A model generated the notes under the pieces. It had not been told where the DNA came from. It did not search any database and saw nothing but the letters and a program-made list of their open reading frames with translations. A DNA stretch of 64,000 bases, taken from NCBI GenBank assembly GCA_963827275.1, contig CAWHAA010000010.1, positions 432,189 through 496,188 on the forward strand, given 5' to 3'. The translations under genes were made by a program, and so were the position numbers. The stretch's first letter is position 1, and every line of letters starts with the position of its first letter. Source of the stretch: an uncultured Spirochaetota bacterium. Its GTDB lineage: Bacteria; Spirochaetota; UBA4802; UBA5550. Positions 19,748 to 62,943 of this stretch are shown here, piece after piece.

Positions 19748-20776
19748 ATGGCCGGCCCCGGTATCCAGCCGCCCCCGCAGAGCGCGGAAGCCGTCCTCAC
19801 CGAGCGGAAGAGGCGCATCTTCAGCGTAAAGACCCTGGTCCTGCTCGCGCTTTCGATCGCCATCGCCTACTTCCTGGCCGGCAAGCTTGACCTCGGCAGG
19901 TCCTTCGACATCATCCGGAACGCGAACGTGTGGCTGATAGCCGCGTCGTGCGCCGTCTATTTCTTGTCGAACTTCTTCAAGATGCTCCGGTTCCGCGTGA
20001 TGCTGTCCGGCTCCGGCATCCCCCTCTTCGCCCTCTACTCGATCACCAGCTATCACAATTTCTTCAATCAGATCATGCCCGCCCGCACCGGCGAGCTTAC
20101 CTTCGTCTACTATCTCAAGAAAATCGGGAACGTTGACATATCGAAGGGCCTTCACATACTCGTCGTGACCAGGATCTTCGACTTCATCGTCATATCCGCG
20201 TTCTTCATCTGCTCGCTGGTGCTCTTCTTCGGGGCGAAGACATCGATAGCGCTCGTGGTCCTCGGCGTGATATTTTTTATCGTCTCTATCGTCACCCTGT
20301 TCAACCTGAAATGGCTGGTGATATGGTCCGGGAAGCTGTTCCACATAACGACCGCGCGCTTCAAGCTCCAGGATACGCCGTTCGTCGCGAAGGTCCTGGG
20401 GAAAATCGATATCGTGGTTGAGGAGTTTTCCTCGTTTAAAGCCGGCCGGCTCGCGCCGATGCTGGCACTGACCAGCATGCTCACCTGGGGGGCGCTCTAT
20501 TTCCTCTTTTTCCTGACGATACGCTCCTTCGGGATCGATATCGGCTTCATCCAGTCGGTGGCCGGCTCCACCGGCGGCGTCCTGACCAATGTGCTGCCGA
20601 TCAACAGCTTCGGGAGCTTCGGCACGCTCGAAGCGGGATGGACCGGCGGCTTCCTCCTGGTGGGGATGAACGAGCACGACGCCATCTTCACCGGGTTCGG
20701 CTACCACGCGATCAGCTTTTTCGCGAGCGCGCTCATCGCGCTTGTGTGCTTCATCGTAACGAAGATACGGAAATAA
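19748..20776 (+). CDS. LPG-synthase TM region / flippase-like protein (UPF0104)
   Basis: NQIMPARTGE, RIFD, GSFGTLEAG. Confidence 0.85.
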   Translation: MAGPGIQPPPQSAEAVLTERKRRIFSVKTLVLLALSIAIAYFLAGKLDLGRSFDIIRNANVWLIAASCAVYFLSNFFKMLRFRVMLSGSGIPLFALYSITSYHNFFNQIMPARTGELTFVYYLKKIGNVDISKGLHILVVTRIFDFIVISAFFICSLVLFFGAKTSIALVVLGVIFFIVSIVTLFNLKWLVIWSGKLFHITTARFKLQDTPFVAKVLGKIDIVVEEFSSFKAGRLAPMLALTSMLTWGALYFLFFLTIRSFGIDIGFIQSVAGSTGGVLTNVLPINSFGSFGTLEAGWTGGFLLVGMNEHDAIFTGFGYHAISFFASALIALVCFIVTKIRK

Positions 20777-20778
20777 CG

Positions 20779-20880
20779 GCCCCTGTCCGGCGCTTTTTCT
20801 GCTGAAGGAGGCTTGTTTTTAGAGGGGGTAATTGCTGATAAAACGCATTCAGCCACATAGGCCGCAACCTGTGAGGATGC
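20779..20880. repeat. Cassette-flanking repeat, copy 1
   Basis: GCCCCTGTCC..GCTTTTTCTGCTG...GATAAAACGCATTCAGCC.CATAGGCCGCAACCT, shared with 21738 and 22356. Confidence 0.88.
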
Positions 20881-20898
20881 AGATTATTATTGAGTTAA

Positions 20899-21630
20899 TC
20901 AGGAATTTTCCGGAGATTGTCCGCCATCAAACCGATACAGTATTGAAAAATCGGCAAATCTGTCAAAACCATGCCCATACATGATATAATTTTTCTGGAA
21001 AAGCCCTCCCAACCTAAACGCAATACCGCCCAAGGACGCATTATATTTTAATCCTCCGCTTATGGACAGGATGACATTTTTTGCGGTTATAATATTGATC
21101 CCGAGTACAAGTCCGAGGTGCAAAGACCCCATATTGTATTTCGCAACATTATACCATGTTTTCAATATATATACCATCAATGGTTCTGCGGCCACAAAAG
21201 CTGTATTGCCATAATGCGCATCGCATATATTATATCGTGTTTTGCCGAAGATGTAATGCACTCCTATCTGTGGTCCCAGCCAAAGGTTCATATAATTCTT
21301 TTTTAACAATGAAAAACAGAATGTATTATCAAAATTGAAGCGTGAGAGCTTTTGAGTATAGCCTGCATTAATTGCATAATAATCCAGAGAGAGATTAAAG
21401 CGATGGATATAGTTTTTATAAGGTGTCTGGTAATCCAAAACCAGACCACCGCCGGCATTCAACATGTATGCGTAATCTTTATCATGCGATTCCCTGTGAA
21501 ACGGGTTTTCTCCATACCAGATCATTTCTCCGCTGCCCGCAGTCATTGATACCCCGATATCAAGAGCCTGCGCGGGTCCGCTTGACACAGCCGCTATTAT
21601 TAATAATACAACAAAACATGTCTGTTTCAT
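20899..21630 (-). CDS. AT-rich secreted protein, possibly outer-membrane beta-barrel
   Basis: Signal peptide (AQA), alternating aromatic/Gly strands, lower GC than flanks. Confidence 0.65.
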   Translation of the reverse strand: MKQTCFVVLLIIAAVSSGPAQALDIGVSMTAGSGEMIWYGENPFHRESHDKDYAYMLNAGGGLVLDYQTPYKNYIHRFNLSLDYYAINAGYTQKLSRFNFDNTFCFSLLKKNYMNLWLGPQIGVHYIFGKTRYNICDAHYGNTAFVAAEPLMVYILKTWYNVAKYNMGSLHLGLVLGINIITAKNVILSISGGLKYNASLGGIAFRLGGLFQKNYIMYGHGFDRFADFSILYRFDGGQSPENS

Positions 21631-21737
21631 AATACCCCCCCCCCGAGGATTTAATTGATACAGAATAACAAAACATTGGTTGAAAATTCAGTAAATCATA
21701 ATTTCGCTAAAACCGAGAAATGTCAATAAAATTTATA

Positions 21738-21858
21738 GCCCCTGTCCCGCGCTTTTTCTGCTGGAGGGTGCTTAATTTGAGAGGGGGTCGGCTTCAGATA
21801 AAACGCATTCAGCCGCATAGGCCGCAACCTATGAGTCTGCTTTTTCCTGTGTATTAAA
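21738..21858. repeat. Cassette-flanking repeat, copy 2
   Basis: Ungapped match to copy 1 over about 100 bp; CATAGG-ccgcaa-CCTATG hairpin. Confidence 0.88.
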
Positions 21859-21886
21859 AATTCTGATTTTTCGAGGTTCCCTAATA

Positions 21887-22252
21887 TTAGATAAGCCAGG
21901 ATATTGCTTCTTCTTTATCCTGAAATAACGATAATAAAAGGTTCTGATTGACGCATACGGTTTCAAAGAATCTATAGTGTTCCCAGTGTTCTGGTTTAAT
22001 TATGAGTGCTATTTTATAATTCAATCTTGTTACACTTTCTTTTAATTCTTCAGGCCGCTCATAAATGTCCACTACACTTCCGATCACTTTTTCTAAATTA
22101 CGATGATCAATTAAAACCTTCTTGAAATTATTGGCTTCCGCTTCGTTAATGACAGCTTTCGCCATTTTTAATGAGCTATCTTTGTCAGCAATGCCCCTTG
22201 AAATAACTTCGATGTATTCATGCTCATCATTGATTATAATATCCCACTCCAT
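21887..22252 (-). CDS. AT-rich STAS/SpoIIAA-like small protein
   Basis: KVLIDHR...KIALI...FFETV...LFQDKEEAISWL pattern. Confidence 0.65.
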   Translation of the reverse strand: MEWDIIINDEHEYIEVISRGIADKDSSLKMAKAVINEAEANNFKKVLIDHRNLEKVIGSVVDIYERPEELKESVTRLNYKIALIIKPEHWEHYRFFETVCVNQNLLLSLFQDKEEAISWLI

Positions 22253-22355
22253 AAGCTTCCCCTATATTTCTAAAAATAACTAAATTTCAAGGCCTCTGTC
22301 CAGAACTTTTTGTGTCGAAAATATAAGGCTGATCTCTCATGGTAGCTACCGATAC

Positions 22356-22448
22356 CATTCAGCCGCATAGGCCGCAACCTATGAGTATGCTTTTTCCTAT
22401 GTATTAAAGTAAGTCTGATCACCCCAGCCACCTGCGGGAGACAGGGGG
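22356..22448. repeat. Cassette-flanking repeat, partial copy 3, plus inverted GACAGGGG end
   Basis: CATTCAGCCGCATAGGCCGCAACCTATGAGT.TGCTTTTTCCT.TGTATTAAA, then CCTGCGGGAGACAGGGGG at 22431-22448. Confidence 0.8.
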
Positions 22449-22537
22449 TTTTTGACACCGGGGTTCATTCCTTCATATATTTTTTTCCTTGACGGGCGTG
22501 TCCGCAGCCCGACAATAGCGGAAATCAGAGTAAAACC

Positions 22538-23722
22538 ATGGGAATGAGCGTAGAAAACCTTTCAATCGTAGCGATGCGGGCGCTGCAGCGCAACAAGATG
22601 AGGACCCTCCTCACCTGCCTCGGCATATTCATCGGCGTGCTGTCCGTCATCGCCCTCACCGGCGTCAGCAACAGCCTCCGGGTCGCGGTGCGGGAGAAGA
22701 TCCAGAGCTTCGGCACCACCGCGATCATGATGATGTCCGTCAAGAAGCCGTTCACCGACAGCGACCTGAAAGACATCCGACGCTCCGTCCCCGAGGTCGA
22801 ATACATCACGCCGATGAACTCCTGGGAGTTCCCGGTCAAATACAAGAACAAGAACCTGAACCGCAAGGTGTACGGCGTCAGCAACGAATACTTCAGCATG
22901 GGCAACTGGGAGTTTGAAAGCGGCGGATGCTTCACCAATGACGAACTCAACGCCCGCGACAAGGTCGTCGTCATCGGGAGCAGCATCAAGAAGCATTTTT
23001 TCGAGGGCGAGGACCCCATCGGCAAGGTCATCCTCATAAACCGCATCCCCTTCAGGGTCATCGGCTCGCTCCAGGAAAAGGGGATGTCGCTCGGGGGCGC
23101 CGACTTCGACGATTTCATCGCGGGCCCCTACACCACCATGGCGTCGAAGCTGTTCGGCACGAACAATTTCTTCATCATCAACATATCCGCATATTCCGAG
23201 GACCAGGTCGACGACGCGAAGAACAACCTCCTGGACATGCTGCAAAAAAAATACAACCTCAGCGCCGAGCAGCTGCAGGACTACCGGATCAACTCCTTCA
23301 AGGAAGCCATACAGAAAACCGAGGAGATCAGCGGGCTCCTCTCCCTCGCCATGGTGGTCATCGCCTTCATATCGCTGGTGGTGGGAGGGATCGGCATCAT
23401 GAACATCATGCTCGCGTCAGTGAGCGAGCGGACCCACGAGATCGGCATCCGCATGGCGATCGGGGCGAAAACGAACGACATACTCAGGCAGTTCCTCATC
23501 GAGGCGATCATCGTCAGCTCCATGGGCGGCATCTCCGGGATAATAATGGGGGTCGTGCTTTACTTCTTCTACACCCTGGCGATGGGCCAGCCCTTCATCC
23601 TTTCGATGGTGTCGATCGTGGCGTCGTTCGCCTTCTCCGCGCTGGTCGGCGTCGCGTTCGGATATTACCCCGCGAGAAAGGCGTCCCGCCTCAATCCCAT
23701 CGACGCGCTCAGGTACGAATAG
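22538..23722 (+). CDS. MacB/FtsX-family ABC transporter permease
   Basis: GGIGIMNIMLASVSERTHEIGIRMAIGA...PARKASRLNPIDALRYE. Confidence 0.93.
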   Translation: MGMSVENLSIVAMRALQRNKMRTLLTCLGIFIGVLSVIALTGVSNSLRVAVREKIQSFGTTAIMMMSVKKPFTDSDLKDIRRSVPEVEYITPMNSWEFPVKYKNKNLNRKVYGVSNEYFSMGNWEFESGGCFTNDELNARDKVVVIGSSIKKHFFEGEDPIGKVILINRIPFRVIGSLQEKGMSLGGADFDDFIAGPYTTMASKLFGTNNFFIINISAYSEDQVDDAKNNLLDMLQKKYNLSAEQLQDYRINSFKEAIQKTEEISGLLSLAMVVIAFISLVVGGIGIMNIMLASVSERTHEIGIRMAIGAKTNDILRQFLIEAIIVSSMGGISGIIMGVVLYFFYTLAMGQPFILSMVSIVASFAFSALVGVAFGYYPARKASRLNPIDALRYE

Positions 23723-36185: not shown

Positions 36186-36669
36186 TGATCATGTCAACTC
36201 CCCCCTGTCCCCCGTAGGGGGCACGTAGGATTTTACTTTCTCTGTTAATTCTTTCTTGATCTTAACAACGACTGAATCAATGTCTTTCATAACTTGATCA
36301 TTAACAAATCGCAATGTCGTGATCCCGAGACTCTTCATGAAATCGTCACGGTATTCATCACAGTCTTTTCTTTCTCTATGGATGTCTCCGTCCAATTCAA
36401 TTGCCAGAAATCTTTCATCACAGTAAAAATCAAGAATATAGCGATATATTGGATGCTGGGATCTGAACCTGTATCCCTCAAGCTATTTATTCTTCAACCT
36501 CTGCCATAATAACTGTTCACTGACAGTTAAATTATTTCGCATATTTCTTGACAGTTGAATAATATAATCCGGTGTTTTAACGCCGTTATTCATTTGCCTT
36601 TACATCCAGCCCCTTGATTCGTGCCCCCTACGGGCGCCGTGCTGAGCTTGTCGAAGCGGGACAGGGGGG
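36186..36669 (-). mobile_element. DUF559 gene bracketed by hairpin inverted repeats, candidate mobile element
   Basis: Left CCCCCCTGTCCCCCGTAGGGGGCACG; right CGTGCCCCCTACGGG[insert]GGACAGGGGGG; AT-rich interior. Confidence 0.7.
36189..36593 (-). pseudogene. DUF559 (Vsr-like PD-(D/E)xK) endonuclease with in-frame TAG at codon 37
   Basis: MNNGVKTPDYIIQLSRNMRNNLTVSEQLLWQRLKNK*LEGYRFRSQHPIYRYILDFYC...LAIELDGDIH...RDDFMKSLGITTLRF; TAG at 36485-36483. Confidence 0.88.
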
Positions 36670-39262: not shown

Positions 39263-39450
39263 AGCCCCCTCAACCGTGCCCCCTGCGGGGGACAGGGGGG
39301 GAATTCAGCCCCCTCAACCGTGCCCCCTGCGGGGGACAGGGGGGGAATTCAGCCCCCTCAACCGTGCCCCCTGCGGGGGACAGGGGGGAATTCAGTCCCC
39401 TCATTCGTGCCCTCTGCGGGGCAAAGCACTGAGCCTGTCGAAGCGGACAG
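39263..39450. repeat. Tandem array of right-end units (43-44 bp x4)
   Basis: AGCCCCCTCAACCGTGCCCCCTGCGGGGGACAGGGGGGGAATTC at 39263, 39307, 39351; degenerate at 39394. Confidence 0.92.
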
Positions 39451-40461: not shown

Positions 40462-40531
40462 TCCCCTGTCCCCGTAGGGGGCACGGAGGAATTCAGCACC
40501 TTGATTCGTGCCCCCTGCGGGGGACAGGGGA
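40462..40531. repeat. Gene-less inverted pair of the DUF559-flanking repeat (mini-MITE)
   Basis: TCCCCTGTCCCCGTAGGGGGCACG-21 nt-CGTGCCCCCTGCGGGGGACAGGGGA. Confidence 0.88.
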
Positions 40532-42827: not shown

Positions 42828-42853
42828 CCCCCCGTCCCCCGTCGGGGGCACGT
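42828..42853. repeat. Solo copy of the DUF559-flanking repeat
   Basis: CCCCCCGTCCCCCGTCGGGGGCACGT. Confidence 0.75.
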
Positions 42854-62343: not shown

Positions 62344-62495
62344 GATCTCAACTCCTCAACTATAAAAATATTCGCATCTGGCTTTACAGAAGCAAACATC
62401 CGATTCAGCAGAGGTCCCCTGGGACACAATAGTGCCTAAACCGGGCCTCTTGAAATACAACACGAAAAAGCGGGGGATTGACCCCATAAATTTGC

Positions 62496-62943
62496 TTAGT
62501 TATATTTTAAACGGGTGTCTTTATCAGACATTGTCGGTGCAATAAGATTCTTCCAATTCTTGGCCTTCCCATGTGCCAAGAGATGAATGCATAATAAAAT
62601 ATTTTTCCGGTATTGGGTGTGTGCCTACAATGACGTTAACCCCGTTTTGTTTTTCAAAAAATGCTTTAAATGTATCGATGTAAGGGCACGGAGGATATCC
62701 AACGACCATCCCGGTAGCTAAATGAATGGTTTCCGCGCCGTTTTTCACCATTTCCTCACCTGTATATTCTATATTACCGCCGGGACAGCCATCGCACGTT
62801 GTAAAACCGACAAGCTCAATTTCTTTATTCGCGTAGATGCTGAATGCCCCTTCTTTATTTTTCATTGAGCGAAGACATTTACCTCCCGCACAGCGGCGAT
62901 AGCGGTCACAGATAATTATACCTATCTTTATTGTTGGGCTCAT
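62496..62943 (-). CDS. CGGC-domain protein, probable late frameshift
   Basis: IIICDRYRRCAGGKC, TCDGCPG, VGTH. Confidence 0.85.

Follow-up and report, generated by a model that had tools for sequence, protein, structure and literature searches.

The 64,000-nt stretch analysed here (the window; positions are given in window coordinates) comes from an uncultured Spirochaetota bacterium with a genome of 4.13 Mb and 56% GC. At 20779-22455 it carries an island that is made up of three co-oriented plus-strand repeats and two spacers, each of which holds one complete minus-strand gene. The repeats, hereafter units u1 to u3, belong to a family that is physically tied to an IS91-family transposase gene: the family unit is a segment of about 127 bp located just downstream of this HUH-type (Y2) gene. 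Compared with the empty sites of related genomes, the 1.68-kb block is an insertion, and its two cargo genes stand out by a foreign composition and a patchy distribution. Our preferred reading, to which we assign a probability of roughly 0.55, is that each of the three repeats is a solo, diverged copy of the ~127-bp right end of an IS91-family element, and that the block with its two foreign genes is an insertion likely to have been assembled and moved by a transposase acting in trans.

The original prediction, made from the letters of this DNA, had described an array of alternating repeats and AT-rich, co-oriented, unrelated genes, and this layout is indeed present, with a GC content of 39% in the spacer of gene 1 and 33% in that of gene 2, versus 56% for the genome. 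The family was defined by an iterated nhmmer profile and by R1, a covariance model built from 35 copies. Unit u1 (20779-20898, plus strand) scores 111.9 bits over the full R1 model and 93.2 bits with nhmmer, and u2 (21729-21858, plus strand) is the best match to the family model in the window (R1, 128.6 bits). The third repeat, u3 (22282-22408, plus strand; R1, 82.0 bits), had been taken for a partial copy; it is of full length, covering model positions 1-139, and its 5′ half is of a different subtype that is common in relatives. Gene 1 (20899-21630, minus strand, 243 aa) lies between u1 and u2, and gene 2 (21887-22252, minus strand, 121 aa) between u2 and u3.

The sequence features reported for the repeats were recovered as well. 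The start GCCCCTGTCC is found at 20779 in u1 and at 21738 in u2, with GCCTCTGTCC at 22292 in u3, and the CATAGG-CCGCAA-CCTATG hairpin is exact in u2 and u3 and imperfect in u1 (CATAGG...CCTGTG). Unit u1 is without the usual AAATTT(T/C)AAG lead, and at its 3′ end it directly adjoins the gene 1 stop codon. The closing inverted CCTGCGGGAGACAGGGGG (22431-22448) lies inside a minus-strand fragment (22421-22455) which, read by eye against the unit consensus, resembles the first hairpin of the unit. This fragment is followed by a T run on the plus strand, its predicted hairpin is weak and it is matched by neither nhmmer nor R1; it could represent a truncated unit in inverted orientation or else an old terminator. 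A solo copy claimed at 42828 turned out not to be a unit, as neither nhmmer nor R1 (at E<=1) gives a match there. Elsewhere in the window, a weak minus-strand R1 match at 62373-62498 (15.8 bits, E 0.025) is possibly a decayed unit.

The unit family in the genome

The genome contains 68 family members by nhmmer, of which 49 are close to full length, and 67 by R1. These units of 66-100% identity are spread over nine contigs, and most of them stand in small clusters, 0.4-6 kb apart and mostly co-oriented, although inverted and tail-to-tail pairs exist. Different genes do lie between the copies genome-wide, as judged from 30 spacers between neighbouring units: in 10 of these, a single called open reading frame of at least 60 aa fills most of the spacer. 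Six of the ten genes have the same orientation as the unit and four the opposite one, which is also that of both window genes. A Pfam scan of nine spacer genes returned seven unrelated families, namely TPR, PF00144 serine hydrolase, FecR, FGE-sulfatase, C_GCAxxG_C_C, an HTH_3 regulator and an S-adenosylmethionine (SAM) methyltransferase, and left two genes without a family.

The first ~45 nt of the unit form an imperfect hairpin that starts at T(T/C)AAGCC. Since MAFFT column-pair scans were swamped by pairings between T runs and G runs and by shifted registers, we relied on per-sequence stem finding, zone folding and a hand-set structure. Stem finding in individual sequences revealed compensatory variants of the 5′ hairpin, for example TTAAGCC/GGCTTAA versus TCAAGCC/GGCTTGA. 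With the hand-set structure, 73.5% of cells are paired, compared with 28-47% when the structure is slid, and compensatory changes occur at 11 of 21 pairs; the covariation score, which can be inflated by relatedness, was reached by none of 500 shuffles. Folding of the 5′ hairpin zone gave a mean z of -1.7 against shuffles. The second and third hairpins, including the CATAGG stem, differ between subtypes and show compensatory variants in some copies. When single units are folded, u1 and u2 are not unusually stable (z 0.7 to -0.1), and u3 reaches about -1.9. The tetranucleotide (T/C)AAG stands just ahead of the first hairpin in 33 of 40 full-length units (u1 has AACG and u2 ATAG in this place), and solo copies display a sharp 5′ border at AAATTT(T/C)AAG. 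No conserved tetranucleotide was seen at the cargo borders in two arrays of identical units, and Rfam returned no match at E<=1 for window positions 20000-23000.

An integron-like platform for gene capture had been proposed on the basis of the repeat-gene layout. This proposal holds insofar as different and mostly complete genes stand between the copies, and it fails at the recombination site. As already noted in the original prediction, attC boxes are missing: R″ (RYYYAAC) and R′ (GTTRRRY) are absent near the ends, on either strand, in all three window units and in all 40 full-length genomic units, and no pairing exists between the unit's two ends, so that an identity as attC was rejected. 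In agreement with the earlier statement that no integrase is adjacent, there is no match over the TIGR02249 cut-off of 265 bits in the genome, only generic tyrosine recombinases; the best of them reaches 127 bits and lies far from units on another contig (C5:39.5-40.4k), where the nearest unit is at 144.6k and none is found within 100 kb of the integrase-like gene. We therefore regard as very improbable, and as already largely refuted, the explanation that unusual attC sites make up the array (a CALIN) and are acted on by a tyrosine recombinase, with the C5 gene as the candidate enzyme. It would account for the gene-repeat order with single complete genes (10 of 30 spacers with one dominant reading frame) and for the AT-rich cargo, an integrase-like gene does exist in the genome, and in two relatives (G015 and G012) a GTTA-rich motif common to both borders the cargo gene of another array; yet the missing boxes, the unpaired ends, the mixed gene orientation, the distance of the units from the integrase-like gene and their tie to an HUH transposase all speak against it.

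The same prediction had the array possibly served by a DUF559 system. The DUF559 gene of the window (36246-36560, minus strand) contains one in-frame TAG and is flanked by inverted copies of the hairpin repeat CCCCCCTGTCCCCCGTAGGGGGCACG (36198-36668), with a copy at 36198-36228 and a further copy at 42828-42852. This flanking repeat is a different, shorter hairpin element than the unit, and the resemblance claimed between the two comes down to the CCCCTGTCC motif, plus CTTCGACA(A/G)GCTCAG(C/G)AC, which occurs in the DUF559 flank at 36640-36660 and in or beside some units outside the island. The right flank holds GCTGAGCTTGTCGAAG, the complement of which forms a 23-nt insert in three units and is found beside the 5′ end of several others. 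A mobile element centred on DUF559 (Vsr-like endonuclease) genes that had the units as its ends or targets, as these common motifs might suggest, is nevertheless the least probable of the explanations considered here and already largely refuted: R1 detects no unit at the DUF559 flanks of the window, and one of nine DUF559 loci lies within 5 kb of a unit, versus three of three transposase loci with a unit. Elsewhere in the window, the motif CCCCCTGTCC (39290-39387 and 40462-40531) appears three times with 44-nt spacing on the minus strand and also as an inverted pair 60 nt apart; this may be the small hairpin family of the DUF559 flank in tandem or palindromic form.

The link to an IS91-family transposase

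At each of the three Y2_Tnp loci of the genome, a co-oriented unit stands at a distance of 136-501 bp from the domain. An intact transposase of 410 aa is encoded at C8:83349-82117, outside the window. It scores 154 bits with NF033538 (cut-off 125), contains Zn_Tnp_IS91 (PF14319) and Y2_Tnp (PF04986), and carries in its translation NPHVH and RYYGIY, which we take to be the HUH and two-tyrosine motifs. The first unit follows 130 nt past its stop codon, and altogether five units that are identical over 127 nt stand behind this gene with unrelated DNA between them. Two copies of the insertion sequence (IS) can be aligned over a stretch that reaches from a GC-rich hairpin, ~70 nt ahead of the start codon, through the unit, and the left-end hairpin contains CCGGAGGGGGC, the same 11 nt as the first hairpin of the unit. 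In addition, several 3′ remnants of the IS, varied in length, are contiguous with a unit, and some array copies retain ~100 nt of extra IS interior on their 5′ side and share the same 3′ border. The window units match the same family model as the transposase-linked units, with 82-129 bits (R1).

This arrangement is also found beyond the source genome. We collected 21 related transposase loci from Spirochaetota metagenome-assembled genomes (MAGs), 18 of which include enough downstream DNA, and in 15 of the 18 a co-oriented unit starts 122-175 nt after the transposase gene; at L088 it stands at 503 nt, and L083 and L086 have none. Seven of the MAG loci contain further units downstream; L098, with a fragmentary transposase match, is the only one to have co-oriented units upstream. 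In a set of 31 genomes from the order, the unit occurs in 18 and Y2_Tnp in 17 (both in 15, the unit only in 3, the transposase only in 2, neither in 11); as these genomes are kin, the co-occurrence is a description and not a test.

The position of the unit might alternatively mean that it is an independent repeat which serves as a landing pad for the IS91-family element, the arrays having been built otherwise. Such a landing pad would fit the sharp AAATTT(T/C)AAG border of solo copies, which the transposase-adjacent copy likewise shows against the IS interior, and the three genomes with units and no Y2_Tnp hit; (T/C)AAG at the unit start moreover resembles the CAAG target described for IS801 (PMC3189936). 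However, the array copies with IS interior at their 5′ side and a shared 3′ border look like truncated right ends, several IS remnants of varied length run into a unit, and arrays extend downstream only, L098 with its transposase fragment excepted. Furthermore, the origin ends of IS91 and ISCR1 are placed within the 80-230 bp that follow the gene in the published accounts (PMC13181058, PMC6218425), which is where the unit is located. We consider a landing pad improbable, and return to the reading of the units as detached right ends.

Insertion of the island and its cargo

The island is inserted between two host genes. Upstream lies a member of the LPG_synthase_TM family (19748-20776, plus strand; Pfam PF03706, E 3.8e-33), whose congeneric orthologues share 70-84% nucleotide identity, and downstream a conserved permease gene with MacB_PCD and FtsX domains (22538-23722, plus strand; Pfam). 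The insertion begins 2 nt after the TAA stop codon of the LPG_synthase_TM gene, exactly at GCCCCTGTCC of u1, and host sequence resumes around 22456. In nine congeneric genomes the flanking genes are direct neighbours, 24-315 bp apart as measured by alignment ends, and the DNA between them consists of a terminator-like hairpin and a conserved TTTTTTTCCTTGAC promoter region; in the window, this promoter region of the MacB-type permease gene is found at 22484-22497 and is common to the relatives in the intergenic alignment. None of the 12 orthologous loci scanned (L008-L018 and L019, the latter covering the G009 locus of L008 at greater length) contains a unit. No target-site duplication was seen at the island junctions; given this and the two differing unit ends, we rejected a miniature inverted-repeat transposable element of a DDE transposon. 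In the closest relative, G009 (C118, L019), exactly this intergenic site is occupied by another insert of 2.2 kb, in which no unit is found; the site seems to be a hot spot. The empty sites in G005, G015, G012 and G003 (L014, L073-L075) contain GC-rich palindromes, CCCCCTCTCC...GGAGAGGGGG, that look like a separate family of the genus resembling repetitive extragenic palindromes.

We compared three further unit-cargo-unit loci with five relatives. Two of them (C2:310.6-312.1k and C5:144.6-148.4k) are clearly insertions; at the third (C7:223.1-224.4k), the corresponding flanks in the relatives enclose unrelated DNA of about equal length. G009 harbours a unit in opposite orientation at the intergenic site of the C2 locus; repeated inserts of this kind indicate that these intergenic sites have been hit repeatedly. 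The cargo of the C7 locus, a SAM methyltransferase gene between two units (G000:C7:223332-224297; L067 2823-3687), is 88-91% identical to copies at other loci in G015, G012, G014 and G009, compared with 69-82% for the flanking core genes. In G015 and G012 the methyltransferase is bordered by a shared GTTA-rich motif, GTTAATTC.GC..CGTTAGCCGTCAGC, which may belong to another cassette system. With such borders, and with no unit in the DNA fetched around them, these copies suggest that cargo genes also travel by other means.

DNA nearly identical to that of the window is present in 20 public runs from 12 studies. Contigs from four runs (four studies) bridge every island junction, and no joint that skips the island, empty-site allele or circle junction was encountered in them. 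As contigs drop rare variants, an unseen empty-site allele is not evidence of absence. Loose contig ends occur at 21728/21729, 22282 and 22404-22408, in agreement with the unit borders. One contig from a wastewater metagenome (99% identity over 365 nt, depth ~5) departs from the host sequence inside the LPG_synthase_TM gene, at 20664, and goes over into the first 30 nt of the unit type that stands behind the intact transposase, a weak hint of a polymorphic unit insertion.

Both cargo genes of the window appear to be passengers that would have no part in the mechanism. The gene 1 protein has a signal-peptide-like N-terminus and matches OMP_b-brl_2 at E 0.005, below the Pfam cut-off; feature matches in a protein atlas (0.97) point to outer-membrane beta-barrel clusters, so that its product may tentatively be described as outer-membrane beta-barrel-like. 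A promoter-like TTGACA-17-AATTAT was located by promoter scan at 21726-21698. Copies of gene 1 are found at other loci in G009 (89% nucleotide identity) and in G012 (76%), and in G012 no unit is present within the 3.5 kb read. Gene 2 matches no Pfam or NCBIfam family; language-model features alone suggest a SpoIIAA-like protein, with an atlas score of 0.94 to a cluster in which 23% of the members carry PF11964, and this assignment is a lead only. Homologues of gene 2 occur in five of 401 genomes of the phylum, the source genome G000 included, with a best identity of 42%; no unit lies near the distant homologues in the other four, which is uninformative.

Proposed mechanism and relation to known systems

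By analogy with IS91, IS801 and ISCR1, we propose that the 3′ border of the unit would hold an origin-type end (oriIS), and that its 5′ hairpin together with the (T/C)AAG tetranucleotide would act as an internal stop signal. The transposase would nick the 3′ border, peel off one strand leftwards and halt at the first stop signal that it obeys. A halt at the unit's own 5′ hairpin would release a free 127-nt mini-element, whereas read-through past this hairpin would carry along the DNA on the left. The 127-nt unit would then be the preferred miniature, equipped with an origin-type 3′ end and an internal stop-type hairpin. With the 5′ hairpin of u1 on its left and the 3′ border of u3 on its right, the island has the ends and the polarity of such an element and could have arrived as one read-through product; a transposase encoded on another contig could also move the island as a whole, or add modules of cargo plus unit at a resident unit.

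A number of observations weigh against this proposal. Neither a nick site nor a circle junction nor a transposition event was seen, and the mechanism is drawn by analogy. No CTTG/GTTC target stands next to the 3′ border of the unit, where the flanks are just A-rich; the target of this IS91-type family may differ from CTTG/GTTC. The second and third hairpins are no stabler than shuffles (mean z 0.08 and -0.27), and RNAalifold yielded no consensus structure for 43 unique units on either strand, with RNA or with DNA parameters. Identity between the window units and the three transposase-linked units is only 55-73% (66-72% among the latter), and resident enzymes may therefore not recognise the window units. 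Of the three genomes with units and no Y2_Tnp hit, G010 is 99% complete and has 17 units. The proposal does not account for the 47 nt between u3 and host DNA, with the inverted first-hairpin fragment and the T run. The stretches fetched around the methyltransferase copies in four relatives contain no unit. Unit u2 combines two subtypes in a mosaic, which is what exchange between units by recombination would produce: its first 65 nt are 74% identical to u1 and 53% to u3, and its last 60 nt are 86% identical to u3. Finally, an 832-bp gene-1 segment recurs in G009 with 89% identity and the same end points, but the unit end that adjoins the gene 1 stop codon is a 5′ end there and a 3′ end (that of u1) in the window; a single rolling-circle capture cannot yield both.

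Several of these points would suit a reading in which the units were mainly portable homology, and the arrays were built by RecA-type homologous recombination (excision, integration and exchange) between independently inserted units and not by transposase capture. Besides the u2 mosaic, the gene-1 segment at different unit ends, the methyltransferase cargo without nearby units and the units in genomes without Y2_Tnp, this explanation draws on the wide dispersal of units of 66-100% identity over nine contigs, on the inverted and tail-to-tail pairs and on the opposite orientation of the G009 unit at the C2 site. The IS801 study likewise ascribes most genomic IS801 fragments to reorganisations in which the element is mainly a source of homology (PMC3189936). 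On the other hand, the five sharp-bordered copies identical over 127 nt behind the intact transposase suggest a replicative process, the outer border of the island coincides with the 5′ end of a unit and does not fall in mid-unit, and units of 55-75% identity are poor substrates for homologous recombination. Exchange between direct repeats alone, moreover, cannot bring a first unit and foreign DNA to an empty site. We consider recombination as the builder of the arrays unlikely, though it deserves serious attention, and continue to favour assembly by a transposase in trans.

A more far-reaching form of the transposase model, which we regard as doubtful, would make the 127-nt units the docking points and handles of a true gene-cassette system run by an HUH transposase, which nicks single strands, in place of an integrase. 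Whole promoter-bearing genes would then be added, removed and passed between species of the genus, and arrays without a transposase would be live stores that any resident enzyme could service.

IS91 and ISCR elements are blamed for the movement of resistance and virulence genes, and how they pick up neighbouring DNA is still argued. The spirochaete genus studied here is rich in natural cases that can be set against empty sites in sister species. If the transposase does service detached ends, the arrays would amount to an integron-like gene store based on a different chemistry, with capture rules that could be read from natural variation; if recombination built them instead, they would be a case of miniature transposon ends reshaping accessory genomes. 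In annotation, such arrays can be mistaken for integron attC clusters.

A CALIN is an integron cassette array without an integrase. The island shares with it the repeat-gene layout, mostly single foreign genes, with or without a promoter, and the lack of a recombinase nearby; it differs in having no attC boxes (0 of 40 units), no pairing of the unit ends, mixed gene orientation and a link to an HUH transposase.

The closest parallels are found among the rolling-circle elements. IS801 is described as forming right-end miniatures of 229-679 nt that start at a tetranucleotide and make up 26% of its transposition events, and as being able to take along 290-1431 nt of upstream DNA (PMC3189936). The short right-end pieces that begin at a GAAC/CAAG-type tetranucleotide resemble the units, and under the proposed mechanism the units would also share the movement by a transposase in trans and the carriage of upstream DNA that are known for IS801 (PMC3189936). 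The miniatures in that description are, however, single insertions of variable length, whereas here a preferred 127-nt form is present in 17-90 copies in most genomes of the genus (4-6 in two, none in one), co-oriented arrays have whole foreign genes between the copies, and no GAAC-type target stands beside the right end.

ISCR1 and other ISCR elements likewise combine an HUH rolling-circle transposase with a downstream oriIS region; in ISCR1, oriIS is reported downstream of the transposase gene with variable foreign genes on that side (PMC6218425). The C8 transposase is in contrast a plain IS91-family enzyme, with 32 bits to the ISCR clade Ia model (cut-off 925), and instead of one oriIS per element we observe rows of detached oriIS-type pieces, in the window without a transposase.

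IS91 itself has unlike ends. According to the account consulted, the last 82 bp plus the tetranucleotide suffice as its origin end, and the other end is a hairpin next to the cleavage tetranucleotide at which termination fails in 1-10% of events, so that neighbouring DNA is carried along (PMC13181058). In the proposed reading, the units would share with IS91 two unlike ends, an origin end within the last ~80 bp with possible subterminal palindromes, a terminal hairpin beside the cleavage site at the other end, and a frequent failure of termination that mobilises neighbouring DNA (PMC13181058). Unlike IS91, the unit has no CTTG/GTTC beside it and there is no orf121, and it appears to combine a stop-type hairpin and an origin-type end within 127 nt.

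Published work already covers right-end miniatures, one-ended transposition and variable oriIS-side DNA. Among the titles and abstract openings listed by searches of an open-access library we found no description of rows of detached IS91-type ends with whole genes between them, which is not proof that they are undescribed. What the array of the window adds is a set of diverged units without a transposase, single complete cargo genes between them, and clean empty sites in sister species.

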